DNA of 36,041 bases. Origin: an uncultured Candidatus Saccharibacteria bacterium (GTDB lineage: Bacteria > Patescibacteriota > Minisyncoccia > Minisyncoccales > CG1-02-41-26). Numbering within the stretch: position 1 is the stretch's first letter; the number at the start of each line of letters is the position of its first letter. Positions 5,450 through 36,041 of the stretch are shown piece by piece. The translations under genes were made by a program, and so were the position numbers. The stretch is taken from positions 79,975-116,015 of the forward strand of contig CAYLHU010000001.1 of assembly GCA_964383715.1 (NCBI GenBank), in the 5' to 3' direction. Below the pieces are notes generated by a model. It was not told the origin of the DNA and did not search any database. It saw nothing but the letters and a program-made list of their open reading frames with translations.

Positions 5450-5509
5450 ATTAGAGATTGTTAATGAGTGAATGCGGAGCATTCACGAATGTTACAATGT
5501 CTTACACCC
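5450..5509 (-). promoter_or_regulatory. shared leader cassette (variant) upstream of deoC
   Basis: Minus strand: GGGTGTAAGACATTGTAA, then the hairpin GTGAATGC..GCATTCAC, then TCATTAACAATCTCTAAT-ATG. Confidence 0.55.
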
Positions 5510-5610
5510 AGCACTTATTTTTACGGAAGTATTAGAAGGGTTTTAATTTTGTAATTCTAAGCGATAATGTTAATGCCTATTTTGTGTTTCTATAGAAATA
5601 AGTGCTGGGT
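5506..5610. mobile_element. MITE-like element, long form (copy 1), TIR ACCCAGCACTTATTT / AAATAAGTGCTGGGT
   Basis: Perfect 15-bp terminal inverted repeats. The interior is homologous to the other five copies. Confidence 0.75.
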
Positions 5611-5654
5611 TAGACGGATAAAAGGGCTTGATTAAGAAAAATTCTCCATTATGG

Positions 5655-6272
5655 TTAGAATTTCTCAACCAAACTTTTTATATCTTCGGAAATTTGACTA
5701 ATAGACCTTTCTCCTTTTATAAAATAAACTTTATTTTCTTGGCTATAATCCTCCAAGATTTCCTTATAATTTTGGTAAACTTCTTTTAATTTTCCAAGTT
5801 TCTCAAAAAGGGTCTTTTCTTTACCCCGACTCTCAACTCTTCCGATGGAAACTTCCGGCGAGGTGTCAATAAAAAACACAATATCCGGTTTTAAAAATTT
5901 TCTGTTAAGACCATAAAGTTTTTTTAATTTTAAGCCATCTGATTTGCCATAACTAAAACTGCTAAAAAAATAACGGTCAGAAATTACGATTTTTCCATTT
6001 TTGAGAGCGGGAATGATTATTTTTTTAAGATGGTGCTTCCTGTCCCGAGAAAATAATTTCTGTAATTTTAGGGGAGAAATCTTTTTTTTCTCCGCTAATA
6101 CTTTTTCAATTATTTTCCCCGCCTTTGAGTCCTTTGTCGGCTCTTTAGTTTTCAAAACCTCTTTTCCTTTTTTTTCCAAAAAGTTAGCCAAAAGTTCCAC
6201 TTGAGTTGATTGGCCAGAACCGTCTAATCCCTCAAAAACAATAAATTGTCCGCGATATTTATTCTTTATCAT
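5655..6272 (-). CDS. tmk: thymidylate kinase
   Basis: FIVFEGLDGSGQSTQ P-loop, DRY motif (SDRYFFSS), about 205 aa. Confidence 0.9.
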   Translation of the reverse strand: MIKNKYRGQFIVFEGLDGSGQSTQVELLANFLEKKGKEVLKTKEPTKDSKAGKIIEKVLAEKKKISPLKLQKLFSRDRKHHLKKIIIPALKNGKIVISDRYFFSSFSYGKSDGLKLKKLYGLNRKFLKPDIVFFIDTSPEVSIGRVESRGKEKTLFEKLGKLKEVYQNYKEILEDYSQENKVYFIKGERSISQISEDIKSLVEKF

Positions 6273-9111: not shown

Positions 9112-11559
9112 TTAAATATCCAAATTCTTGACTTTCTTGGCGTAAAGCTGAATAAATTTCTTTCGGGGCATAACCTCTTTCCCCATTAATATGTCAAAAA
9201 TATGGTCAGCTTCTTTGGCGTCCTCAATAACCACTTTTAGCAATATCCTGTTTTGAGGGTCCATTGTCGTAGTCCAAAGTTCCAAAGGGTTCATCTCTCC
9301 CAAGCCCTTATATCGTTGGATATTTGGCTCTGTTTTTTTCTCTTTTTTAAAAGTGGTTAAAATCTCTTCTTTATCGGCATCCGTATAGGCATACTCTACG
9401 CTTTTCCCGCTTTGAATCTTATAAAGGGGTGGCTGGGCTATGTAAAGATATCCTTTATTAATTATCTCCCGAAAATATCTGTAAAACAGAGTTAAAAGTA
9501 ATGTTCGAATATGCGCCCCATCAACATCTGCATCGGTCATTATTATAATTCTTTGGTATCTTAGGCGACTTATATCAAAGTCCTGGGCGATGGCTGTTCC
9601 TAAAGCAATAATTAACGCCTTAACTTCGTTGAAAGTTAATATCTTATCAAGGCGTGCTCTTTCTACATTTAAAATTTTTCCTTTAAGGGGCAATATCGCT
9701 TGAAATCTCCTGTCTCTCGCCATTTTCCCACTATTATGGACAAAGACACCAGAAGCCAAAGCAAAATTATGAGTCCTCTCTACTTCTATATCGTAAACAT
9801 CTATTTTTTGAGAAACTTTGACTATTTTTTTGATACGATGATTATAATTTAACACAGCACTTTTTAATTTTTCTTTATCACTATCAAAAAATCTATGGCA
9901 AATTGTCTCATATTTTAAAATGCTCTTGTCATTTCTTAATTCCCGCTCTTGTTTTTTACGATAGAGTGGCATCAATGAATCTTTTACAGTAAGGTCTTCT
10001 GCTTTTTTATACCCCCCATTTCTTAACATAAACTTATGGTCGGGAGTACAGGTTATTTCTTCATCATTGTCCAATATCAATTTAACAACTTTCACCTTTT
10101 TCTTGGTTTTCCGAGCATTTTTTATTAATTCAACTCCAATCTCTCCATTTTCTTTTATGGTATAACAATAATTTTTCTTGCCTTCTTTTTCTTCCTTAAT
10201 TAACTCCTTAAAAGAAACATCTTTGCCATTTACTAAACTAATTTTCGTATCGCCGGCAAAACACCCTCCGGCGCTGTCTCCCTCAACTATATAAATTTCC
10301 GATTCGGACGGGTCCTTTGAGGAACAATCGGCTAATTTACCCGGTAAAGTCAACCCCTCTAAAATCCCTTTTCGCAAAACGGTTGTCCTCGCCACTTTGG
10401 CGGCTCTTCTTGCCCGAGCTGCCAAAAAACAATTTTCAATTATGGACTTGGCGTCTTGAGGGTTTTTCTCCAAGAATTCAGATAGGCCTTCTAAAACAAC
10501 GGCTTCAACAACGGACTTTGCTTCAGGATTCCCTAATTTAGCTTTCGTTTGCCCCTCAAATTGAGGTTCTTTTATTTTAACGGAAACGACCGAAGTCAAC
10601 CCTTCCCGAACATCATTCCCCGTGAGATTTTCATCCTTCTCTTTCAAGAAACCATTTTTCCGAGCATAATCATTCAAGGTTCTAGTCAACGCCCCTCTAA
10701 AACCGGTGAGATGGGTTCCCCCTTCGCCAGTAAAAATATTATTGGCAAAACTTTCCTCAAAACACTCCATCTCTTTTGTATATTGAAAAGCGGCTTCTAC
10801 CAAAATTTCATCTTTTTTCTTACAGGTATAAAAAATATGTTCGTGGCGAGGTTCGGAATCGTTAATTAGGTATTTAACATAGGAAGTCAAACCACCTTCA
10901 AAGTAAAAATTATAATCAAAATTAGGAAAAGTTCTTTCGTCGCGAACTTTTAATTTGACACCAAAACTTAAATAGGCCTGTTGACGAATATGATTTACAA
11001 TCTTTTTAAAATCAAATTTTACATTTTTAAATATGGTAGAATCGGGCTCAAAAATTATCGTTGTTCCCCTTTTATTACAACTTCCTATTTTTTTTATTTT
11101 CGTCTTTACTTTGCCTCGAGAATATTCTTGAGCATATTTCGCTCCATCCCGACAAACTTCAGCTCTCAAGTAATTACTTAAAGCACAAACAACAGAGACC
11201 CCAACTCCATGCAATCCCCCGGCTACCTGATAGGCCTTCCCACCGAACTTAGCCCCGGCATGCAAAGTCGTCATAACCGTTTCCAACGCCGATTTTCCGG
11301 TTTGAGGGTGCCTATCAACCGGTATCCCCCGGCCATTATCCTCGCATTTAATTCTGTTATCTGATAAAAGAGTGATTTCTATTTCGTTGGCAAAACCGGC
11401 CATCGCTTCATCAATACCATTATCTAAAACTTCCCAAACCAAATGGTGAAGTCCCTCGGGGCCCGTGGAACCAATATACATCCCCGGTCTTTTTCTGACC
11501 GGCTCAAGCCCTTTAAGGACATAAATATCTTTGGCACTATATTCTTCTTCTTTAATCAT
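9112..11559 (-). CDS. gyrB: DNA gyrase subunit B, interrupted by an in-frame mini-intein
   Basis: GHKL ATPase (HHLVWEVLDNGIDEA, GLHGVG), Toprim EGDSAGG ... IMTDADVDGAHI, and a QRYKGLGEM tail. It is 815 aa with the intein and 638 aa without it. Confidence 0.95.
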   Translation of the reverse strand: MIKEEEYSAKDIYVLKGLEPVRKRPGMYIGSTGPEGLHHLVWEVLDNGIDEAMAGFANEIEITLLSDNRIKCEDNGRGIPVDRHPQTGKSALETVMTTLHAGAKFGGKAYQVAGGLHGVGVSVVCALSNYLRAEVCRDGAKYAQEYSRGKVKTKIKKIGSCNKRGTTIIFEPDSTIFKNVKFDFKKIVNHIRQQAYLSFGVKLKVRDERTFPNFDYNFYFEGGLTSYVKYLINDSEPRHEHIFYTCKKKDEILVEAAFQYTKEMECFEESFANNIFTGEGGTHLTGFRGALTRTLNDYARKNGFLKEKDENLTGNDVREGLTSVVSVKIKEPQFEGQTKAKLGNPEAKSVVEAVVLEGLSEFLEKNPQDAKSIIENCFLAARARRAAKVARTTVLRKGILEGLTLPGKLADCSSKDPSESEIYIVEGDSAGGCFAGDTKISLVNGKDVSFKELIKEEKEGKKNYCYTIKENGEIGVELIKNARKTKKKVKVVKLILDNDEEITCTPDHKFMLRNGGYKKAEDLTVKDSLMPLYRKKQERELRNDKSILKYETICHRFFDSDKEKLKSAVLNYNHRIKKIVKVSQKIDVYDIEVERTHNFALASGVFVHNSGKMARDRRFQAILPLKGKILNVERARLDKILTFNEVKALIIALGTAIAQDFDISRLRYQRIIIMTDADVDGAHIRTLLLTLFYRYFREIINKGYLYIAQPPLYKIQSGKSVEYAYTDADKEEILTTFKKEKKTEPNIQRYKGLGEMNPLELWTTTMDPQNRILLKVVIEDAKEADHIFDILMGKEVMPRKKFIQLYAKKVKNLDI
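9733..10263 (-). mobile_element. 177-aa mini-intein within GyrB (residues 433-609), no homing-endonuclease domain
   Basis: It is inserted in the Toprim motif: EGDSAGG|CFAGDTKISL ... (TCTPDHKF, block B) ... VYDIEVERTHNFA ... GVFVHN|SGKMARD. It shows Cys1, the TxxH block, a terminal HN and a Ser +1. Confidence 0.9.
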
Positions 11560-11663
11560 TTTTTTATTATTTATTAATTTCAGTAGAGCAATTAAACAAT
11601 CTTCATTATTAATTTTAACAAAATATCGCCAAAAAACAAGAAAGAAATCTATTTTTAATCTAA

Positions 11664-11726
11664 CAAAAAAGGGAGGGTAACTGTCGTTGACTAAAAATGT
11701 CGTTGACCAAACCTGTTACCCTCCCC
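11664..11726 (-). terminator. rho-independent terminator
   Basis: On the minus strand, GGGAGGGTAAC-loop-GTTACCCTCCC is followed by TTTTTTG. The loop contains a direct repeat of GTCAACGAC. Confidence 0.7.
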
Positions 11727-12259
11727 TTACGCTTCTTCTCTCTGAAGAAACGGATCGATCGTATGAAGATGGCGAACTAGCAAATCAGCCAATTCGTCCC
11801 TCCTTCTGGGAGTTCGCTCACCCGACTTTCTAGGTAGGATAACCCCCTGAATCGCAGGTGCCGAACTTTTCTTGAGTTCGTTTCAATATGACAGAAATAT
11901 TTTTTCCGAGCCAGATTAGTCCTTGTGGCTTGAGTTTTTGACTCGCTGAATCCACCGTTAGACCTCGACTCGATTTCCGAAACATTGAACGAACTTCTTT
12001 TCGAATTCGCTCTTTGAAAATGGCAGAAAATGCTTTCTCTTGATACCGGACCTTTCTAATCCGGGACTGCGCATTTCACGCCGGCGAAATAATAATTTTC
12101 AAAAGCGAACTCTAAGATAAAATTTACTCTTTGAGGAAGATTTTTTGGTGGCTTATACCCAGTAAGGTCCTGGCGTACTTGCACATCCTTGACTAAACGT
12201 CGTGTTTTTTCCTCCTTAAGCAAACTTATTCTTTTTTGTTTTCAAAGAACTTCAATTAT
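11664..12259 (-). ncRNA. candidate large (about 600 nt) structured non-coding RNA, class unknown
   Basis: ORF-free and visibly more G+C-rich than other spacers. It is bracketed by a near-consensus promoter and an intrinsic terminator on the minus strand and contains recurrent CGAACT/AGTTCG helices. Confidence 0.45.
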
Positions 12260-12265
12260 ATTTAC

Positions 12266-12293
12266 ATTGTAGCATAACCATTTTATTTGTCAA
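12266..12293 (-). promoter_or_regulatory. sigma70-like promoter TTGACA-16 nt-TGcTACAAT (extended -10)
   Basis: On the minus strand it reads gTTGACAaataaaatggttaTGcTACAAT. The -35 overlaps the last pheT codons and its stop. Confidence 0.55.
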
Positions 12294-14355
12294 CCCCTCT
12301 GACTTTCCAATCTGCTTTTTTCTCCAATTCATTGACAATTCTTTGATGGATATTGTCAACTTCTTCGGATGTTAATGTTTTCTTCCCCGATTGATAAATT
12401 ATATGAAAGGCAAGATTCTTTTTGCCTTTGGGAATTTCTTTTCCTTCATAAATATCAAAAAGTTCAACATCTTTAACTAAACCTTTTCCGATGTTGTTTA
12501 TTTTATCCAAGATATCAACTATCTTTGTATTATGAGAAACCAAAATGGCTAAATCCCTAACCGCTGGCGGATAAGGAGATATTGGATTATATTCTTGTTC
12601 TTCGGAAGCAATTTTAGAAATTTTTTCAAAATTAAGATTGAAAAGAAAAATTTTTTCCTTAATATCTATTTTTTTCAGTATAGCCGAATTAATTTCTCCC
12701 AAGAAACCAATCCCCTCCTTCCCAGCTTTTATTTCGGCGCATTTTTGAATATTCCAAAAGTTTGGACTGGAGAACTCTGAAGTTGATTGGAAATCGTCAT
12801 AAAGAATATTGCTGATGGCCAACTTATTGAGAAGAAAGTCCACGACACCTTTTAATTCATAAAAATCTTCAGAATTTGTTTTTTTTCTGGCGATTAACCC
12901 GCTAAGCATTTTTCTTTCTTTTATTTCTTCTTTTTTATTTTTTAATTGTCTTTTTTCAAAGACATCGCCTAATTCAAAAATCTTTATTTCTTCAAAGTTT
13001 TTTAGATTTTCTTCAACATTTTTTACCAGCTTAATCAATAAATTAGGACGAAGATACCTATTAAGAGAACTAATCGGATTTTCCAATTCTACCAATTTTT
13101 TCTCATCTAATTCGAAAACCTCTTTTTCTTTCTCCCCAATAAAGGAATAATTATAGACCTCAAAAAAACCTAATTCTTTTAAAATATCCTGACAAATTTT
13201 TTGCCAGAATATTTCTTTATTTTTTGAAGGAGAAAATAATGGTGAATAAGGATAACTCGGAATAATATTCTGATAATCCAAAATCCTTCCTATTTCCTCA
13301 ATTAAATCCTCTTGGAGAGAGACATCTAATCTTCGGGTGGGAACTTTTATCTCTATTTCCTCAGATAATTTCCCCTTAACTTCAAACCCTAATTTTTCAA
13401 GAGCGTTTTTTATTTCTTTCCCGAGAACTTTTCGCCCTAATAATTTTTCAACATAATTCAAATTTAGTTTAATTTTTCTTTCAGTCGTTTTTTTAGGATA
13501 AAAATCTATAGTCTTCCGAGAAACATCTCCTCCGCTTATTCCCTGAACTAGCGAGGAAACTCTTTCTTGGGTCCAATCGGCCAAATTAGGGTCAATCCCA
13601 TTTTCAAAGCGCCAAGAGGCGTCTGTTTTTAGTTTTATTTTTTTAGAGGTTCTTCTAATGAGTTTAGGATTAAAATTGGCCGCTTCTATAAGTATTCTTT
13701 TTGTTTGGGAGTCAATCTCCGCTTTCTCCCCTCCCTTGATTCCGGCAATAGCTAATGGCTCTTTTTCATCGGCTATTACTAAAATATCCTCGTCTAATTT
13801 ATAAACCTCTCCCCCAAGAGCTTTTATTTCTTCCCCCTTCCTCGCCCTCCTAACAATTATTTCTTGTCCCATTTTATCAAGGTCAAAAGCGTGAAGGGGC
13901 TGGCCAGTTTCTAACATCACATAATTTGTAATATCAACAATACTATTTATAGGTTGAAGCCCGCAGGACTTTAATCTTTTTTGAATCCAAAAAGGAGAGT
14001 CCTTAACTTTGATATTGGAAATTACCCTCCCAGTATAACGGGGGCAATCATTTTTATCCTCTACCTTCAATTTAATTTCGTTTTTTACTCTCTCTTCCTT
14101 ATTCTTTTTTATCGGACAAAGAGGAAGACAAAATTTCTGACCGGAAACAATAGCGGATTCTCTGGCTACGCCGATATGAGACAAACAATCACAAGCACGA
14201 TTTGGTAAAACATCAATATCCATAACCCAGTCCTCATTTCTTTTTTCAATTTTCTCTACCTCAAAACTATGCCCACTTAAAAGCTCGGCTAATCTTTTGG
14301 GAATTGGTAATTCTCCCTTGATATAATCCTTTAACCAATTGTAAGAAAACAACAT
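12283..14355 (-). CDS. pheT: phenylalanine--tRNA ligase beta subunit
   Basis: MLFSYNWLKDYI N-terminus, B3/4 and B5 regions, C-terminal anticodon-binding FDIYEGK...K..LAF. No pheS is adjacent. Confidence 0.9.
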   Translation of the reverse strand: MLFSYNWLKDYIKGELPIPKRLAELLSGHSFEVEKIEKRNEDWVMDIDVLPNRACDCLSHIGVARESAIVSGQKFCLPLCPIKKNKEERVKNEIKLKVEDKNDCPRYTGRVISNIKVKDSPFWIQKRLKSCGLQPINSIVDITNYVMLETGQPLHAFDLDKMGQEIIVRRARKGEEIKALGGEVYKLDEDILVIADEKEPLAIAGIKGGEKAEIDSQTKRILIEAANFNPKLIRRTSKKIKLKTDASWRFENGIDPNLADWTQERVSSLVQGISGGDVSRKTIDFYPKKTTERKIKLNLNYVEKLLGRKVLGKEIKNALEKLGFEVKGKLSEEIEIKVPTRRLDVSLQEDLIEEIGRILDYQNIIPSYPYSPLFSPSKNKEIFWQKICQDILKELGFFEVYNYSFIGEKEKEVFELDEKKLVELENPISSLNRYLRPNLLIKLVKNVEENLKNFEEIKIFELGDVFEKRQLKNKKEEIKERKMLSGLIARKKTNSEDFYELKGVVDFLLNKLAISNILYDDFQSTSEFSSPNFWNIQKCAEIKAGKEGIGFLGEINSAILKKIDIKEKIFLFNLNFEKISKIASEEQEYNPISPYPPAVRDLAILVSHNTKIVDILDKINNIGKGLVKDVELFDIYEGKEIPKGKKNLAFHIIYQSGKKTLTSEEVDNIHQRIVNELEKKADWKVRGVDK

Positions 14356-14394
14356 ACATTTTTATTTTAACAAAATCCTTCCGAAAAACAACAC

Positions 14395-14515
14395 AAAGGA
14401 AGGAAGGAAAAAGTGTAAAAGTGTAAAAGTGAGTAAGTGGACAAGTGAGTAAGTGGACAAGTGGATAAGTGAGTAAGTGGGTAAGTGAGTAAGTGTTGGA
14501 ATGTTGGAATGTTAG
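14395..14515. repeat. period-8 word array (GTGTAAAA, GTGAGTAA, GTGGACAA, GTTGGAAT)
   Basis: Seen directly, immediately upstream of the pheT start. Confidence 0.75.
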
Positions 14516-14558
14516 AGCAGATAAGTGGAATAAATAAAAAATAATAGAAAAAGAAAAA

Positions 14559-14874
14559 AGGTGCGTTTTGAAGGCGATGAGGGATTACCCTCATCTTTGC
14601 TCCTCGCTATGCTTGTCGCAGGCGATGAGGGATTACCCTCATCTGTGAGTCCACAAAGTGGGCGAATAAAGATGAGAGCAAAGCTCTCATCGCTTAACTC
14701 GCTCACTTTGTTCGTTTGGTGCGATCGTCCAGAAACGCACCTGTTTTTTACACGAAGAAAAGAAAATATAAAAGGTTCATTCTGGGACGATCGTCCAGAA
14801 ACGAACCTGTTTTTTTACACGAAGAAAAGAAAATATAAAAGGTTCATTCTAGGACGATCGTCCAGAAACGAACC
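14559..14874. repeat. composite hairpin repeat (unit X with internal duplications)
   Basis: It contains 2 copies of GATGAGGGATTACCCTCATC, the hairpin GATGAGAGCAAAGCTCTCATC, the hairpin GGTGCG..CGCACC followed by a T-run, and 2 copies of a module of about 63 bp with GGACGATCGTCC. Confidence 0.85.
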
Positions 14875-15015
14875 CAAACATAAAGACGGACAGGATAAGG
14901 CAAAAGAAACATTTTATAACAAATATCGCCGATCGTCAGGATTTGTTATAAAATAAATAAATAGATAAATATAGGCAAAAAAGGGAAAAAAAGGGGGAAA
15001 AGAATAAAAGAAAAA

Positions 15016-15216
15016 AGGTGCGTTTTGAAGGCGATGAGGGATTACCCTCATCTGTGAGTCCACAAAGTGGGCGAATAAAGATGAGAGCAAAGCTCTCATC
15101 GCTTAACTCGCTCACTTTGTTCGTTTGGTGCGATCGTCCAGAAACGCACCTGTTTTTTACACGAAGAAAAGAAAATATAAAAGGTTCATTCTGGGACGAT
15201 CGTCCAGAAACGAACC
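15016..15216. repeat. composite hairpin repeat (unit X, second copy, about 200 bp)
   Basis: Near-identical to 14559-14874 minus its internal duplications, in the same orientation. Confidence 0.85.
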
Positions 15217-15277
15217 CGATTGATAAAATGGAAAAAAGAAAAAAGGGAAAGAGGAAATAAAAAAAATAATAAAAAAG

Positions 15278-15352
15278 CGCAGCCGATGGGATTTGAACCC
15301 ACGATCTCCGCCGTGACAGGGCGGCGCTTTGAACCAGCTAAGCTACGACTGC
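15278..15352 (-). tRNA. tRNA-Asp (GUC)
   Basis: The minus strand folds as a cloverleaf: acceptor GCAGTCG/CGGCTGC, anticodon arm CCGCC-CTGTCAC-GGCGG, T arm GTGGG-TTCAAAT-CCCAT. No CCA is encoded. Confidence 0.9.
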
Positions 15353-15405
15353 ATTAGAACGACTTAATGAACAATTTGAATTTAGTCGTTCTTATGTGCC
15401 GGTGT

Positions 15406-15573
15406 TCAAAGATTTTTTTTAAAAAATCTTTTCTATCAATCTTCGTGAAGCGAAGAGATGGTCAAAGATTTTTTTTAAAAAATCTTTTCTATCAATCTTC
15501 GTGAAGCGAAGAGATGGTCAAAGATTTTTTTTCAAAAAATCTTTTCTATCAATCTTCGTGAAGCGAAGATTGA
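15406..15573. repeat. 3 x 56-bp tandem repeat inside the insertion downstream of tRNA-CAU
   Basis: The unit is TCAAAGATTTTTTTTAAAAAATCTTTTCTATCAATCTTCGTGAAGCGAAGAGATGG. It contains the AAAGATTTT..AAAATCTTT palindrome also seen at about 4714 and about 25439. Confidence 0.8.
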
Positions 15574-15640
15574 TGAGGGAGTTGAACATCGCGTTACCAA
15601 CCCCCCTACCAGCGATTAACTAAGTTATCCTAATCTTTTG

Positions 15641-15713
15641 TGCCGGTGGAGGGATTCGGACCCCCGACACGTGGATTATGATTCCACTGCTCTAACCCCT
15701 GAGCTACACCGGC
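15641..15713 (-). tRNA. tRNA with CAU anticodon, elongator Met or Ile2 (lysidine) type
   Basis: Acceptor GCCGGTG/CACCGGC with a paired 1-72, anticodon arm GTGGA-ATCATAA-TCCAC, T loop TCCGAAT. It lacks initiator features. Confidence 0.85.
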
Positions 15714-15849
15714 GTTAGAACAAGTTAATGAGCTACAGCAAATTTACTTGTTCTTACGCCCGCCTAAATTTTGCTCTGCAAAATTTAGGCAGGCATTGAT
15801 TTTTTACCTAAATCATAGATTTAGATAAAATCAATGTTGCGGGGGCTGG

Positions 15850-15940
15850 TGTACTTCGCTAAAGCTTCGTATCACTTTAATATACTTTACTAAAACCCCG
15901 TATCACTTTGCTTGCTATTCCGTAGCTTTAGCGAAGGATA
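15850..15940. mobile_element. 91-bp miniature insertion with 13-bp TIRs, flanked by a duplicated tRNA-fMet 3' end
   Basis: The TIRs are CTTCGCTAAAGCT / AGCTTTAGCGAAG. The flanking 14-bp direct repeats GTTGCGGGGGCTGG lie at 15836-15849 and 15941-15954, and the latter forms part of the tRNA. Confidence 0.65.
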
Positions 15941-15941
15941 G

Positions 15942-16013
15942 TTGCGGGGGCTGGAATCGAACCAGCGATTTCCAGGTTATGGGCCTGGCGAGATACCTCT
16001 TCTCTACCCCGCG
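15942..16013 (-). tRNA. initiator tRNA-fMet (CAU)
   Basis: C1:A72 mismatch at the end of the acceptor stem (CGCGGGG/CCCCGCA), anticodon arm CCAGG-CCCATAA-CCTGG, T arm GCTGG-TTCGATT-CCAGC. Confidence 0.85.
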
Positions 16014-16047
16014 ATAATTTTCTATTCTATATCAACTCCTCTCAAAA

Positions 16048-16281
16048 TCAACTCTTTTTCTTTGTTTTTTTAACAGGTCTAACTGGACTAATCCAATATA
16101 ATAAACTACTCTTGCAAAGAAAATAAATAATTAAAAATAAAAAAGAGGCGGAAATAATAATAAAAACTATTTTCAAAGGAAAAACGCTTTTCTGTAATTG
16201 AGGAGAAATTAAATAATTAAAAATCTCTTTAATCTTGCCCCAAAGTTCCGAATATTCATTTACTTCCGGATAATAATTCAT
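16048..16281 (-). CDS. small hypothetical membrane protein
   Basis: 77 aa with one clear hydrophobic helix (LKIVFIIISASFLFLIIYFLC). It starts 7 nt after the gatA stop. No recognisable family. Confidence 0.4.
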   Translation of the reverse strand: MNYYPEVNEYSELWGKIKEIFNYLISPQLQKSVFPLKIVFIIISASFLFLIIYFLCKSSLLYWISPVRPVKKTKKKS

Positions 16282-16287
16282 TTAGTT

Positions 16288-21964: not shown

Positions 21965-22028
21965 ATTAGAAGATGTTTCCGCTTAAGTTTTTACTCCGTA
22001 AAAAGTTAAGCGGATTACAGATTCTTAT
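21965..22028 (-). promoter_or_regulatory. shared leader cassette (full form) upstream of the rseP-like gene
   Basis: Minus strand: GGGTATAAGAATCTGTAA, then the hairpin CCGCTTAA..TTAAGCGG, then GCGGAAACATCTTCTAAT-ATG. Confidence 0.6.
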
Positions 22029-22133
22029 ACCCAGCACTTATTTATATGAAAATATTACAAGGGTTTTAACTTTATAAAACTAAATGATAATGTTAACCCC
22101 TATTTTGTTTTTCTGTATAAATAAGTGCTGGGT
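22029..22133. mobile_element. MITE-like element, long form (copy 2)
   Basis: Same TIRs, about 105 bp, same orientation as copy 1. Confidence 0.75.
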
Positions 22134-22151
22134 TAGACAGAGCAAAGCTTT

Positions 22152-22730: not shown

Positions 22731-22810
22731 ACCCAGCACTTATTTGTACAGAAAAACAAATTTATAAAGTTAAAACATTTGTAATACTTTTATAGAAATA
22801 AGTGCTGGGT
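22731..22810. mobile_element. MITE-like element, short form (copy 3)
   Basis: Same TIRs, 80 bp, opposite internal orientation. It lacks the internal segment of about 25 bp. Confidence 0.75.
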
Positions 22811-22832
22811 TTGGCAGATTACAGATTCTTAT

Positions 22833-22912
22833 ACCCAGCACTTATTTATACAGAAAAACAAATTTATAAAATTAAAATCTTTGTAATACTTCCGTATAAA
22901 TAAGTGCTGGGT
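22833..22912. mobile_element. MITE-like element, short form (copy 4), tandem with copy 3
   Basis: Same TIRs, 80 bp, 22 bp after copy 3. Confidence 0.75.
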
Positions 22913-22963
22913 TTGGCGGAGTTAACATTAATTAGCCAATCGGGCTTTGGCTTCGCCTCACCC

Positions 22964-23811: not shown

Positions 23812-23937
23812 TTACGAATAGTATGATACAAATCTACGAATCTAATGCTAATCTACAAATCTACGAATTTGGTATCGTGTTAATTCGTAGCATTCGTAAT
23901 TCGTAGATTCGTGTTTATTCGTAGATTAGTATCGCTA
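23812..23937. repeat. about 125-bp imperfect-palindrome element rich in ATTCGTAG / CTACGAAT words (copy 1)
   Basis: It fills the mreB2-holB spacer. Over its whole length it is the reverse complement of the copy at 27931-28060. Confidence 0.75.
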
Positions 23938-24945
23938 TTATTTTTTAGTTGTTAAGCTTTTCTTATAGAAATCCAAGTTTTCCAAGACCACCCCTACCCC
24001 CTTAATAACACAAAATAAAGGGGCCTCCCCGATAAAACAAGGAACAGCAATTGTTTTAGATATCAATTGTTCAATATTCCTTAATAAAGAGCCACCACCG
24101 GTCATAATCATCCCCTTGTCCATAATATCAGCTGCAAGTTCCGGTGGGGTTTTTCTTAGAACTTGCTTGATTGCCTCTATAATTTCTTCTAAGACCTCTT
24201 TCAGGGCTCCGACTAATTCGTTAGAATAAATTTTGACACTTCTGGGTAATCCGGAAATTATATCTCTTCCCTTCACTTCAATAAAATTTTCCTTTTTTTG
24301 AGGGATAGCTGTCCCAATCTTTATTTTTATCTCTTCGGCTGATTGAGTGCCGATAACTAAATTATATTTCTTCTTAACATATTCGGAAATAGCTGTATCC
24401 ATTTTATCCCCACCTACTCTAACCGAAGAAGATGTTACAATCCCCCCTAAAGAAATAACCGCAATTTCCGATGTCCCCCCGCCGATATCAATAACCATAT
24501 TTCCTTGGCTGGAATGAATAGGTATCCCCGCTCCTATAGCCGCCAATATCGGCTCTTTGGCCACGAAAGCCCTTTTGGCTCCCGAAGTTAAGGCCGCCTC
24601 AATAACCGCCCTTCTTTCAGTTGATGTTGCTCCGGCCGGCACGGAGATGACTAAATCAGGCTTAAATGGATTAAATCCCTTTTGGGCTTTAGTAATAAAA
24701 TGCTTAATCATTGCTTGAGTAACTCGGTAATCGGCTATAACCCCATCTTTCAAAGGACGATAAACTTTTATCGTTTCCGGTGTTCTCCCAATCATTAATT
24801 TGGCCTCTTCTCCAACAGCCAAAATCTTCTTTTCCGGTTCAGACAAGGCAACTACAGATGGCTCTTGTAAAATTATCCCTTTTTTGGGAATAAAAACCAG
24901 CGAGTTACATGTCCCCAGATCTATGGCAATTTTTGTGACAAACAT
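23938..24945 (-). CDS. mreB: MreB paralog (copy 2)
   Basis: KIAIDLGTCNS, IDIGGGTSEIAVISLGG and GGGSLL motifs, 335 aa. Clearly related to the copy at 18322-19374 but diverged from it. Confidence 0.85.
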   Translation of the reverse strand: MFVTKIAIDLGTCNSLVFIPKKGIILQEPSVVALSEPEKKILAVGEEAKLMIGRTPETIKVYRPLKDGVIADYRVTQAMIKHFITKAQKGFNPFKPDLVISVPAGATSTERRAVIEAALTSGAKRAFVAKEPILAAIGAGIPIHSSQGNMVIDIGGGTSEIAVISLGGIVTSSSVRVGGDKMDTAISEYVKKKYNLVIGTQSAEEIKIKIGTAIPQKKENFIEVKGRDIISGLPRSVKIYSNELVGALKEVLEEIIEAIKQVLRKTPPELAADIMDKGMIMTGGGSLLRNIEQLISKTIAVPCFIGEAPLFCVIKGVGVVLENLDFYKKSLTTKK

Positions 24946-25039: not shown

Positions 25040-25500
25040 GAGTTTTTGCTTTACAAAGGCAAAGATAAGGCGATGAGGGATTACCCTCATCTTTACAAGC
25101 TCACTTCATTCGCTTGTAGATGAAGCGAAGCATTCATCGCCATCAATCCTTTGCTTTACAAAGGCAAAGATAAGGCGATGAGGGATTACCCTCATCTATG
25201 AGCCCACAAAGTGGGCGAATAAAGATGAGAGCAAAACTCTCATCGCTTAACTCGCTCACTTCATTCGCTTGTAGATGAAGCGAAGCATTCATCGCCTGCT
25301 CAAGTGAGGCGAAGCCGAATGTAGAGCTAAGATGAAAACATAGTTTTCATCGCGAAACATCAAGTTTTTGCTTTACGCTCAATGAACACTTCGTGTTCAT
25401 TTCCACTCGCCTGCTCACTTTGTTCGCAGACTTCGTAATCAAAGATTTTTGAAAAAAATCTTTTCTACTCACCTTCGCTCTGCGAAGGTTCGTAAGCTAA
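25040..25500. repeat. mosaic array of GATGA...TCATC-type hairpins
   Basis: It contains two copies of TTTGCTTTACAAAGGCAAAGATAAGGCGATGAGGGATTACCCTCATC and two copies of CTCACTTCATTCGCTTGTAGATGAAGCGAAGCATTCATCGCC. It also has the GATGAGAGCAAAACTCTCATC, GATGAAAACATAGTTTTCATC and AATGAACACTTCGTGTTCATT hairpins and an AAAGATTTTTGAAAAAAATCTTTT palindrome. Confidence 0.8.
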
Positions 25501-26316: not shown

Positions 26317-26464
26317 GTAGATTGGTATCGTGTAATTCGTAACATTCGTAGCATTCGTAGCATTCGTAATTCGTAGATTCGTGTTTATTCGTAGATTGGT
26401 ATCGTGTTGATTCGTAGCATTCGTAATTCGTAGATTCGTATTCATTCGTAGATTGGTATCACAC
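26317..26464. repeat. ATTCGTAG-word element, two tandem partial units
   Basis: GTAGATTGGTATCGTGT..ATTCGTAGCATTCGTAATTCGTAGATTCGT..TTCATTC is repeated twice. It fills the spacer between rpsI and the Cas4-like gene. Confidence 0.75.
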
Positions 26465-27115
26465 TTACCTCTTTGACCATTGTGGGGCTTTTCTTGCTCT
26501 CTTAAGACCGAATTTCTTTCTTTCTCTCATTCGAGGATCTCTGGTCAAAAAACCAGCTTTTTTTATTTTTTTTCTAAAATAAGGATTAACCAAAACTAAG
26601 ACCCTAGAAATACCGTGTCGGCAAGCCCCAGCTTGAGAAGACAATCCCCCTCCTTTGACTAAAATAGAAACTGTAAACTTATCAGAGCAATTTAGTATTC
26701 TTAAAGGGGCTTCTATTTCTTTTTGAAAAGCAATATCCGGGAAATAGGATTTATAAGGTTTTTTGTTAACCAAGATATCTTTCTTCACTTGAACGGTCTC
26801 TTCGCCATCTTTTGAAGAAAGTGGCGCGCTGGTAAAAAGACGAACTCTCGCTGTTGAAGTTTTTCTTCTCCCCACCGCCTCAAAATACTTTGAAATGGTT
26901 TTTTTCTTCTTATCTTCCCCCTTCTCCCCCTTTTCTGTCTTTTTTTCTTTTATCCCCCCTTCAATCTTTTTCTTTGGATTAATTGACTTAACCCCTTTTT
27001 TAATTACTTGCTTATCCCTTGAACTCACAGAAGAAATGGGTGAAGATGACAACTCCGTTGCTGTTGCCTGTTCTTTTTTTATTTCGTCTTTAATTTTGGT
27101 TTTTTTTTCAATCAT
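26465..27115 (-). CDS. rpsI: 30S ribosomal protein S9 with an N-terminal K/E-rich extension of about 80 aa
   Basis: The core GRRKTSTARVRL ... GGGLSSQAGACRHGISRVL ... TRDPRMRERKK.G...ARK..Q.SKR starts near residue 80. The ATG lies 5 nt after the rplM stop. Confidence 0.9.
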   Translation of the reverse strand: MIEKKTKIKDEIKKEQATATELSSSPISSVSSRDKQVIKKGVKSINPKKKIEGGIKEKKTEKGEKGEDKKKKTISKYFEAVGRRKTSTARVRLFTSAPLSSKDGEETVQVKKDILVNKKPYKSYFPDIAFQKEIEAPLRILNCSDKFTVSILVKGGGLSSQAGACRHGISRVLVLVNPYFRKKIKKAGFLTRDPRMRERKKFGLKRARKAPQWSKR

Positions 27116-27474: not shown

Positions 27475-27570
27475 AAAATATTATTTAAAATTAATGTTGT
27501 CCGTTACATGCTACATGTTACATGTTACATGTTACACATTACATGTTACATGTTACATGCTAAACGCCCT
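27475..27570. repeat. period-7 word array (TTACATG about 8 times)
   Basis: Seen directly. It fills the rplQ-rplM spacer. Confidence 0.75.
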
Positions 27571-29038: not shown

Positions 29039-29130
29039 GTAGCGTGTAGTGTGTAGCGTAAAACGTAGAAATTAAATTTTACAAGTTACAAGTTACAGGT
29101 TACAAGTTTTAAGTTACAAGTTATAAGGTT
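29039..29130. repeat. word arrays (GTAGCGT/GTAGTGT, then period-7 ACAAGTT about 6 times)
   Basis: Seen directly. It fills the rpsD-rpoA spacer. Confidence 0.75.
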
Positions 29131-29760: not shown

Positions 29761-29830
29761 GTTAGAAAATGTTAGTCTGCCGAAGTTTTGCGGAGCAAAA
29801 GTTTGGCAGGTGTTACAGATTCTTACACCC
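29761..29830 (-). promoter_or_regulatory. shared leader cassette (variant) upstream of rpsD
   Basis: Minus strand: GGGTGTAAGAATCTGTAA, then the hairpin CTGCCAAACTTTTGC..GCAAAACTTCGGCAG, then ACTAACATTTTCTAAC-ATG. Confidence 0.55.
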
Positions 29831-29922
29831 GTCTAAGTTTTGCCTTCGGCAAAATTTGGGCGGGTAAAGGTTTGGTTACTAAAAACTCTTCGGCTTCGCC
29901 TCGCATTTTTAGACCAAACACT

Positions 29923-30375: not shown

Positions 30376-30396
30376 ATTAGAAGATGTTTTCGCCTA
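30376..30396 (-). promoter_or_regulatory. shared leader motif upstream of rpsK
   Basis: Minus strand: GGCGAAAACATCTTCTAAT-ATG, abutting a MITE-like TIR. Confidence 0.6.
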
Positions 30397-30476
30397 ACCC
30401 AGCACTTATTTCTATAAAAGTATTACAAATGTTTTAACTTTATAAATTTGTTTTTCTGTACAAATAAGTGCTGGGT
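30397..30476. mobile_element. MITE-like element, short form (copy 5)
   Basis: Same TIRs, 80 bp. It starts 21 nt upstream of the rpsK ATG. Confidence 0.75.
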
Positions 30477-30498
30477 TAGACGGGTTACAGATTCTTAT

Positions 30499-30600
30499 AC
30501 CCAGCACTTATTTCTGAAACACAAGATAGAGATTAACATTATCGTTCAGATTTATAAAGTTAAAACCCTTGTAATATTTCCATAGAAATAAGTGCTGGGT
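30499..30600. mobile_element. MITE-like element, long form (copy 6), inverted relative to copy 5
   Basis: Same TIRs, about 102 bp. Confidence 0.75.
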
Positions 30601-35688: not shown

Positions 35689-35755
35689 ATATGAAATAAA
35701 TCTATTTATTATTCTATCATAAATCCTAAATTTTGAAAGACACTAAACTAAAAAA

Positions 35756-36041
35756 GGTTCGTTTGTGTGCGATGAGGGATTACCCTCATCTTTACAAACT
35801 CACTTCGTTCGTTTGTGGACGATCGTCTTAGAATGCACCCTTTTTCTTTTTCTTTCCTTCGTGCAAAAAAAGGTTCGTTTGTGTGCGATGAGGGATTACC
35901 CTCATCTTTACAAACTCACTTCGTTCGTTTGTGGACGATCGTCTTAGAATGCACCCTTTTTCTTTTTCTTTCCTTCGTGCAAAAAAAGGTTCGTTTGTGT
36001 GCGATGAGGGATTACCCTCATCTTTACAAACTCACTTCGTT
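35756..36041. repeat. tandem repeat, 116-bp period, about 2.5 identical units, running off the window
   Basis: The unit contains GCGATGAGGGATTACCCTCATC and GGACGATCGTCT. GGTTCGTTTGTGTGCGATGAGGG recurs at about 35756, 35872 and 35988. Confidence 0.85.

Follow-up and report, generated by a model that had tools for sequence, protein, structure and literature searches.

A candidate stand-alone structured RNA of about 595 nt between pheT and gyrB in a patescibacterial genome

The pheT-gyrB spacer and its transcription signals

The DNA analyzed here, referred to as the window, is a 36,041-nt stretch from an uncultured member of the Patescibacteria whose named best matches are Nealsonbacteria- and Paceibacterota-like and whose nearest PheT, in a search of 5.8 billion proteins, shares only 65% identity. 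Two minus-strand genes, pheT (12283-14355) and gyrB (9112-11559), flank a spacer of 723 nt (11560-12282 in window coordinates), in line with the distance of about 720 nt that a first-pass annotation of the same DNA had read between the pheT stop (12283) and the gyrB start (11559). The gyrB gene encodes an 815-aa protein that carries an intein (Pfam Intein_splicing), and the size of GyrB in relatives extends from about 650 aa in intein-free proteins up to 1082-1184 aa. The pheS gene is absent from the window and does not adjoin pheT; the interval 14356-16287 contains three tRNA genes and repeat arrays in its stead, while one relative (L027) displays the order gatCA-x-pheS-pheT-gyrB.

Inspection of the minus strand reveals a sigma-70-type promoter for the candidate RNA at 12266-12293, composed of TTGACA (12293-12288), 16 nt and the extended -10 element TGcTACAAT (12274-12266). 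The match to the consensus is 11/12 plus the extended -10 TG, the -35 element overlaps the final pheT codons, and transcription is predicted to start near 12259. This is the only site of at least 11/12 plus TG on either strand of the 36-kb window, for which a first-order Markov model gives a chance expectation of 0.07 such sites, and it bears out the earlier description of a near-consensus promoter overlapping the pheT stop. A different extended -10 sequence, TGnTAAAAT, is located about 8 nt before the ATG of several genes, for example pheT and the gene at 5655-6272, and this proximity to the start codon suggests leaderless mRNAs.

At a promoter-to-terminator distance of about 595 nt, the same strand contains an intrinsic-terminator-like hairpin (11665-11728; z = -5.6) with a G/C stem of 11-14 bp, a 33-nt loop and a U6 tract (11670-11665). 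The stem is formed by GGGAGGGTAAC (11725-11715) paired with GTTACCCTCCC (11681-11671), and the resulting duplex has an energy of -25.3 kcal/mol. The 11-bp G/C stem and following T run that the first-pass annotation had placed at this distance are thus confirmed, with the stem extendable to 14 bp and the run consisting of T6. The loop is atypically long and contains two direct GUCAACGACA repeats, and it is because of these 33 nt that a consensus terminator scan did not list the candidate's terminator. On sequence evidence, a sigma-70-type promoter and an intrinsic terminator therefore bracket the element, as would be expected of an independent transcription unit.

The base composition of the interval had previously been judged by eye to be enriched in G+C. 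The enrichment is real, since G+C reaches 41.9% in the core of the candidate, whereas the window as a whole has 35.3% and other spacers have 25-38%, but it is modest, and one further spacer of 162 nt reaches 43%. The recurring CGAACT/AGTTCG arms that had been described are also present: the window has 12 CGAACT sites, and the 600 nt of the candidate account for 4 of them.

Domain anatomy and strand asymmetry of the fold

For the transcript strand, the predicted fold comprises five or six well-defined hairpin domains and relies on many G.U pairs; all domains are given here in minus-strand orientation. D1 (12118-12262; z = -4.2, 0 of 200 shuffles as good) comprises a 5' hairpin (12250-12228) and a long irregular hairpin (12227-12120), and its segment AAGGAGGAA is paired with UUCCUC. 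D2 (11996-12117; z = -4.4) is a rod-like hairpin of 122 nt closed by GAGUUCGC/GCGAAUUC with the apex CCGGAUU-AGAAA-GGUCCGG, and D3 (11875-11995; z = -5.0) is a rod-like hairpin of 121 nt closed by AGUUCGUU/AACGAACU; the 3' arms of these two domains are alike. D4 (11811-11867) is a 57-nt hairpin closed by AGUUCG/CGAACU, and D5 (11765-11806) is a 42-nt hairpin with the inner stem CGAAUUGGC/GCUAGUUCG. D6 (11730-11752) is a perfect 9-bp hairpin, CGUUUCUUC-AGAGA-GAAGAAGCG, with a pair probability of 0.99, and is preceded by the single-stranded palindrome GAUCGAUC; CGAAUUCG is another palindromic segment of the candidate RNA. An AGUUCG/CGAAYU closing helix is common to D2, D3 and D4, which are joined by purine-rich linkers of 7-8 nt, and the inner stem of D5 is built from the same arms. 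Short motifs recur as well, with GAUUCAG in D3 and D4, GGAUUAG in D2, and UAGAAAG in D2 and D4. The RNA looks partly modular, possibly as a result of internal duplication.

The minus strand between 11664 and 12262 folds at -201.3 kcal/mol, compared with -149.1 ± 6.2 kcal/mol for dinucleotide shuffles (z = -8.36; 0 of 100 shuffles as good). Pairs of the minimum free energy (MFE) structure have a mean probability of 0.90, with 95% above 0.5, and five sub-domains folded singly give z-scores from -3.7 to -5.6, with no shuffle out of 200 matching any of them. Strong folding is, however, common in this genome: in a scan of the window from end to end, z lay between -7 and -20 for many spacers, and wherever else a spacer of the window folds strongly it is made up of palindromic repeats, dispersed or in tandem. 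With DNA palindromes in most spacers, the z-score of a fold, however negative, cannot discriminate here by itself. The general rule invoked by the first-pass annotation, that GC-rich, ORF-free islands are structured RNAs, calls for caution in this genome, where most spacers are likewise strongly structured, in their case as dispersed DNA palindromes.

How, then, is an RNA candidate to be separated from repeat debris in such a genome? The answer, a point of method, lies in comparing the two strands. As a control, 14 spacer segments from elsewhere in the window were folded on each strand, and the repeat-based spacers were all strand-symmetric, with minus/plus excess stabilities of, for example, -64/-71, -51/-53, -37/-43, -50/-46 and -34/-36 kcal/mol. 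Among the spacers folded, the candidate is the exception to this symmetry. Its plus strand folds at -150.8 kcal/mol against -136.9 kcal/mol for shuffles (z = -1.88), which puts the candidate's minus/plus excess stabilities at -52/-14 kcal/mol. Moreover, the minus-strand MFE structure contains 25 G.U pairs versus 2 A.C mismatches in symmetric loops, counts that are biased towards the folded strand because they are taken from its MFE. The strand asymmetry and the G.U excess point to structure at the RNA level, and a wobble-dependent structure confined to one strand is the look of a selected RNA fold and not that of a DNA inverted repeat.

The repeats of the window can be described as follows. 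A palindromic family of about 100-130 nt (ACCCAGCACTTATTT...AAATAAGTGCTGGGT) is found in at least four spacers (5492-5624, 22015-22147, 22731-22929 and 30391-30600), folds equally on both strands and has a MITE-like look. A second family, containing GATGAGGGATTACCCTCATC, is found at 14555-14718, 15012-15127, 25051-25271 and 35750-36041; it includes a perfect 116-nt tandem triplet, which continues past the window's right end, and, at 14610-14833 and 15019-15242, two copies of a 224-nt duplication with 94% identity. Three tandem 56-nt units, each with the perfect palindrome AAAGATTTTTTTTAAAAAATCTTT, lie between tRNA-Asp and tRNA-Met (15403-15571), where z is about -11 on both strands. The spacer between the genes for ribosomal proteins S11 and S4 (29761-29922), which apart from the candidate is the only one with raised G+C (43%), contains three strand-symmetric palindromic hairpins (z = -4.4 and -6.0), and its fold does not look RNA-specific. 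Short-period arrays, ATTCGTAG-like or ATGTTAC/AAGTTAC-like, are located directly upstream of several genes (23869-23940, 26339-26467, 27494-27562 and 29076-29123). Just upstream of pheT (14395-14506) is an AAGTGnnn array with an 8-nt period, and similar GAAAAGT-type arrays follow pheT in one relative (L008, 6100-6500).

Distribution of the element and rival explanations

The gap from pheT to gyrB is 0-210 nt in 13 of 14 genome loci of relatives and in the three closest metagenome contigs, and the relatives in which the two genes directly adjoin have PheT identities of 50-65%. The exception is L008, in which pheT is followed by about 4 kb of repeat-rich, ORF-poor DNA with no ORF above 98 aa. 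Since pheT and gyrB are adjacent in relatives, the 600 nt represent a lineage-specific insertion that splits a conserved gene pair, and the element, which the closest relatives do not have, is not essential to the clade. Within its own population, the element is present on contigs from many samples and always between pheT and gyrB. The 741-nt spacer is the same, base for base, in all 19 contigs checked, and among the nine contigs compared over 2.8 kb the only difference is one mismatch, carried by one of them. The element is therefore real and not an assembly artifact, and this same identity means that population variation gives nothing to exploit. A look-up for short transcript-like contigs returned none, only the DNA context pheT-RNA-gyrB.

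The first-pass annotation had also proposed blastn and nhmmer searches for kin in related genomes. Neither method found a homolog in the pheT loci of the 14 relatives or in the three closest PheT relatives, where the gyrB promoter segment alone matched, namely to pheT promoters. A covariance model of D3-D5 matched only itself in 236 kb of relatives' and flanking DNA, and blastn against phage and plasmid collections returned nothing. Pattern scans were equally negative: an exact 22-mer had 0 matches in JGI metagenomes, a junction-motif pattern had 10 matches in IMG/VR, about the number estimated for a pattern of such specificity and none of them RNA-like by nhmmer, and six degenerate patterns, searched in metagenomes and IMG/VR via a pseudo-protein of the 92-codon frame, yielded 0 confirmed matches. 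Exact-pattern scans of this kind detect only near-identical or motif-conserving copies, and distant homologs are beyond their reach.

A rival possibility is that the element is non-functional insertion debris, that is, decayed nested or tandem MITE-like palindromes behind a promoter-like sequence, with the structure arising as a by-product of DNA inverted repeats. The palindromic and MITE-like repeats of this genome do resemble the candidate, in that they also lie in spacers, are insertions relative to the relatives and have very negative z-scores, and the spacers are full of such palindromic and dispersed insertions. Moreover, D2, D3 and D4 start with AGTTCG and finish with CGAAYT in the manner of short terminal inverted repeats, the element is missing from relatives, and the searches gave no sign of conservation. 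However, the genome's repeats are multi-copy and strand-symmetric, whereas the candidate is single-copy within 56 kb (the 36-kb window plus 20 kb of flanks) and asymmetric, and a dispersed DNA palindrome or MITE was rejected on both counts. The wobble pairs described above likewise argue against a DNA-level origin, the putative terminal repeats share 6 nt only, and the element is delimited exactly by the best promoter match of the window and the terminator. Debris is for these reasons an unlikely explanation. It should be kept in mind that many spacers of this genome are long, structured and apparently selfish, yet tolerated, and that being retained is therefore no proof of function in itself.

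Could the structure instead act in cis, either as a long structured 3' UTR of pheT or as a leader or attenuator for read-through into gyrB? No terminator of pheT itself precedes the element, which pheT transcripts must therefore enter, and the candidate's terminator precedes the start codon of gyrB by about 105 nt. A segment of D4, GUUAUCCUACCU, is similar to the terminator's 3' arm and could form a helix of -14.7 kcal/mol with the 5' arm. At -25.3 kcal/mol, the terminator stem is far stronger than this alternative, and the idea of an antiterminator is weak on these energies. Furthermore, gyrB has its own separate promoter (11612-11639, minus strand; TTGTTT, 16 nt, TGtTAAAAT), which lies 3' of the candidate's terminator, is of a conserved type and is similar to the promoters upstream of pheT both here and in the two relatives closest to this genome. 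The element matched no family of riboswitches or leaders, and a 3' UTR would have no need of a near-consensus promoter of its own. A cis-acting role is accordingly held to be quite improbable.

Coding potential was evaluated across the spacer. The longest start-to-stop ORF is 55 aa (TTG start, 12223-12056), in keeping with the prior statement that no ORF of at least 60 aa is present, and the longest stop-free run of 92 codons is ordinary relative to dinucleotide shuffles (P = 0.32). One frame, interrupted by TAG codons only, has no more than 3 stops over 199 codons (P = 0.054 relative to shuffles), gene callers annotate a 51-aa ORF on many contigs, and the codon-usage score of the 5' 55/61-aa stretch, 0.17-0.20, is within about 1 sd of real genes, with other frames negative. 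However, 18% of non-coding open runs reach that score, and no reading frame of the spacer has a match in Pfam or PHROGs. When the 92-aa open run was searched exhaustively with HMMER against 1.84 billion representatives, the sole match was a repeat-driven artifact, and word-indexed searches of 5.8 billion proteins found no relative of the 51-aa ORF except itself and none of the 61-aa 5' frame. The search with tblastn, using the neighboring proteins of a relative, revealed no remnants of neighbor genes, and the region is heavily base-paired. A Shine-Dalgarno motif precedes only 2 of the 31 genes of the window, so that little about translation can be read from the AGGAGG-like segments of the RNA. 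With no homology, no neighbor remnants and codon usage within the non-coding range, the protein-homology check proposed earlier gives no sign of a decayed gene, and a small protein encoded by the 55-aa ORF or a decayed gene in the frame broken by TAG only, with a dual-function RNA as a sub-variant, is a very remote prospect.

Possible function and comparison with known RNAs

Taken together, the promoter, terminator, fold and strand asymmetry suggest that the element is probably a stand-alone gene on the minus strand for a structured non-coding RNA of about 595 nt, one that would be strongly transcribed and whose function is not deduced from its sequence. The earlier proposal of an ORF-free, independently transcribed structured RNA is upheld by these four lines of evidence (z = -8.4 for the fold), all of which are derived from one sequence. 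The candidate is a credible lead, and a good lead rather than a discovery, because the conclusion is drawn from a single sequence.

What might such an RNA do? We hypothesize that it would be made abundantly and would act in trans as a folded RNA and not as a message. The most likely specific mechanism, to which we attach low confidence, is that of a multivalent scaffold or decoy: D2-D4, with the same closing helix and the common GAUUCAG/UAGAAAG motifs, could show one module repeatedly to one protein partner. A duplexfold scan for trans-targets performed no better than the null. The 22-27 bp basal stems of D2-D4 would also be plausible RNase III substrates, and an RNase III gene is located about 10 kb beyond the left end of the window (locus L039); given this enzyme and the long stems, processing into hairpin RNAs can be considered a sub-variant of the scaffold. 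More tentatively than the gene itself, we raise the possibility that the candidate is the founding member of a new class of large structured RNAs in Patescibacteria (CPR), abundant, about 595 nt in length and built from reiterated rod-like modules that serve as a multivalent scaffold or give rise to processed hairpin RNAs.

To our knowledge, the RNA repertoire of the CPR/Patescibacteria is almost unexplored, and the literature searched contained no work on structured non-coding RNAs in this group. If genuine and strongly expressed, a 600-nt non-coding RNA of one lineage would join the short list of large bacterial RNAs without known function, and it would lend itself to structure determination or pull-down experiments. 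If it were a transcribed insertion remnant, it would be of local interest only.

Known families were considered in turn. No Rfam 15 family passed its gathering threshold in the spacer, and relaxing the cut-off to E <= 10 (11500-12400, both strands) added only noise, of which the best match (E = 0.24, ncr1175) was driven by the terminator hairpin. The suggestion that the element might be a ROOL, GOLLD, OLE or raiA-like RNA is not borne out, as none of these families matched at gathering thresholds or even at E <= 10. RNase P, SRP RNA, 6S RNA and T-box or riboswitch leaders are excluded as far as covariance models reach, and ARAGORN finds no tRNA or tmRNA in the spacer (the window has three tRNAs only), in accord with the previous failure to fit the sequence to RNase P, tmRNA, SRP RNA or a T-box. 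Group I and group II introns (RF00028, RF00029 and the D1-D4 models) had no match at E <= 10, and the element is intergenic. Reading of the sequence led to rejection of a tRNA or anticodon mimic, of a type I toxin (no hydrophobic ORF) and of an oriC (no DnaA boxes). A CsrB-like sponge was likewise rejected, as GGA is not enriched, with about 12 occurrences counted by eye versus about 11 expected from base composition.

Several systems nevertheless offer points of comparison. TIGR arrays, which have been reported from phage and parasitic bacteria, consist of strictly regular 36-nt units with two alternating repeats of 8-12 nt and 9-nt spacers, and adjoin a Tas gene with a Nop domain (PMC12045711). 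The candidate resembles them as a non-coding, array-like transcript with reiterated short repeats and a terminator at its end; it was rejected as a TIGR array because it has no regular period, its modules span 57-122 nt, and its neighbors are pheT and gyrB. OLE (RF01071), ROOL (RF03087) and GOLLD (RF01998) share with it a size of about 600 nt, a stand-alone position in an AT-rich genome, a very stable multi-domain fold and a function that cannot be deduced from context. However, those families are widely conserved and have intricate multi-way junctions and pseudoknots, whereas the candidate is a string of rod-like hairpins found in one clonal population of a different phylum (Patescibacteria).

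S. aureus RNAIII and CsrB/RsmZ are multi-hairpin regulatory or sponge RNAs of several hundred nucleotides with their own promoter and terminator, in which independent hairpins carry a reiterated partner-binding module. Their size, their bead-on-a-string hairpins and a reiterated module that could bind one partner repeatedly are shared by the candidate, although it has neither sequence or model similarity to them nor a convincing small ORF. The candidate is thus a member of none of these groups, and it is similar to the large ornate RNAs in size and autonomy and to the multi-hairpin sponge RNAs in architecture.
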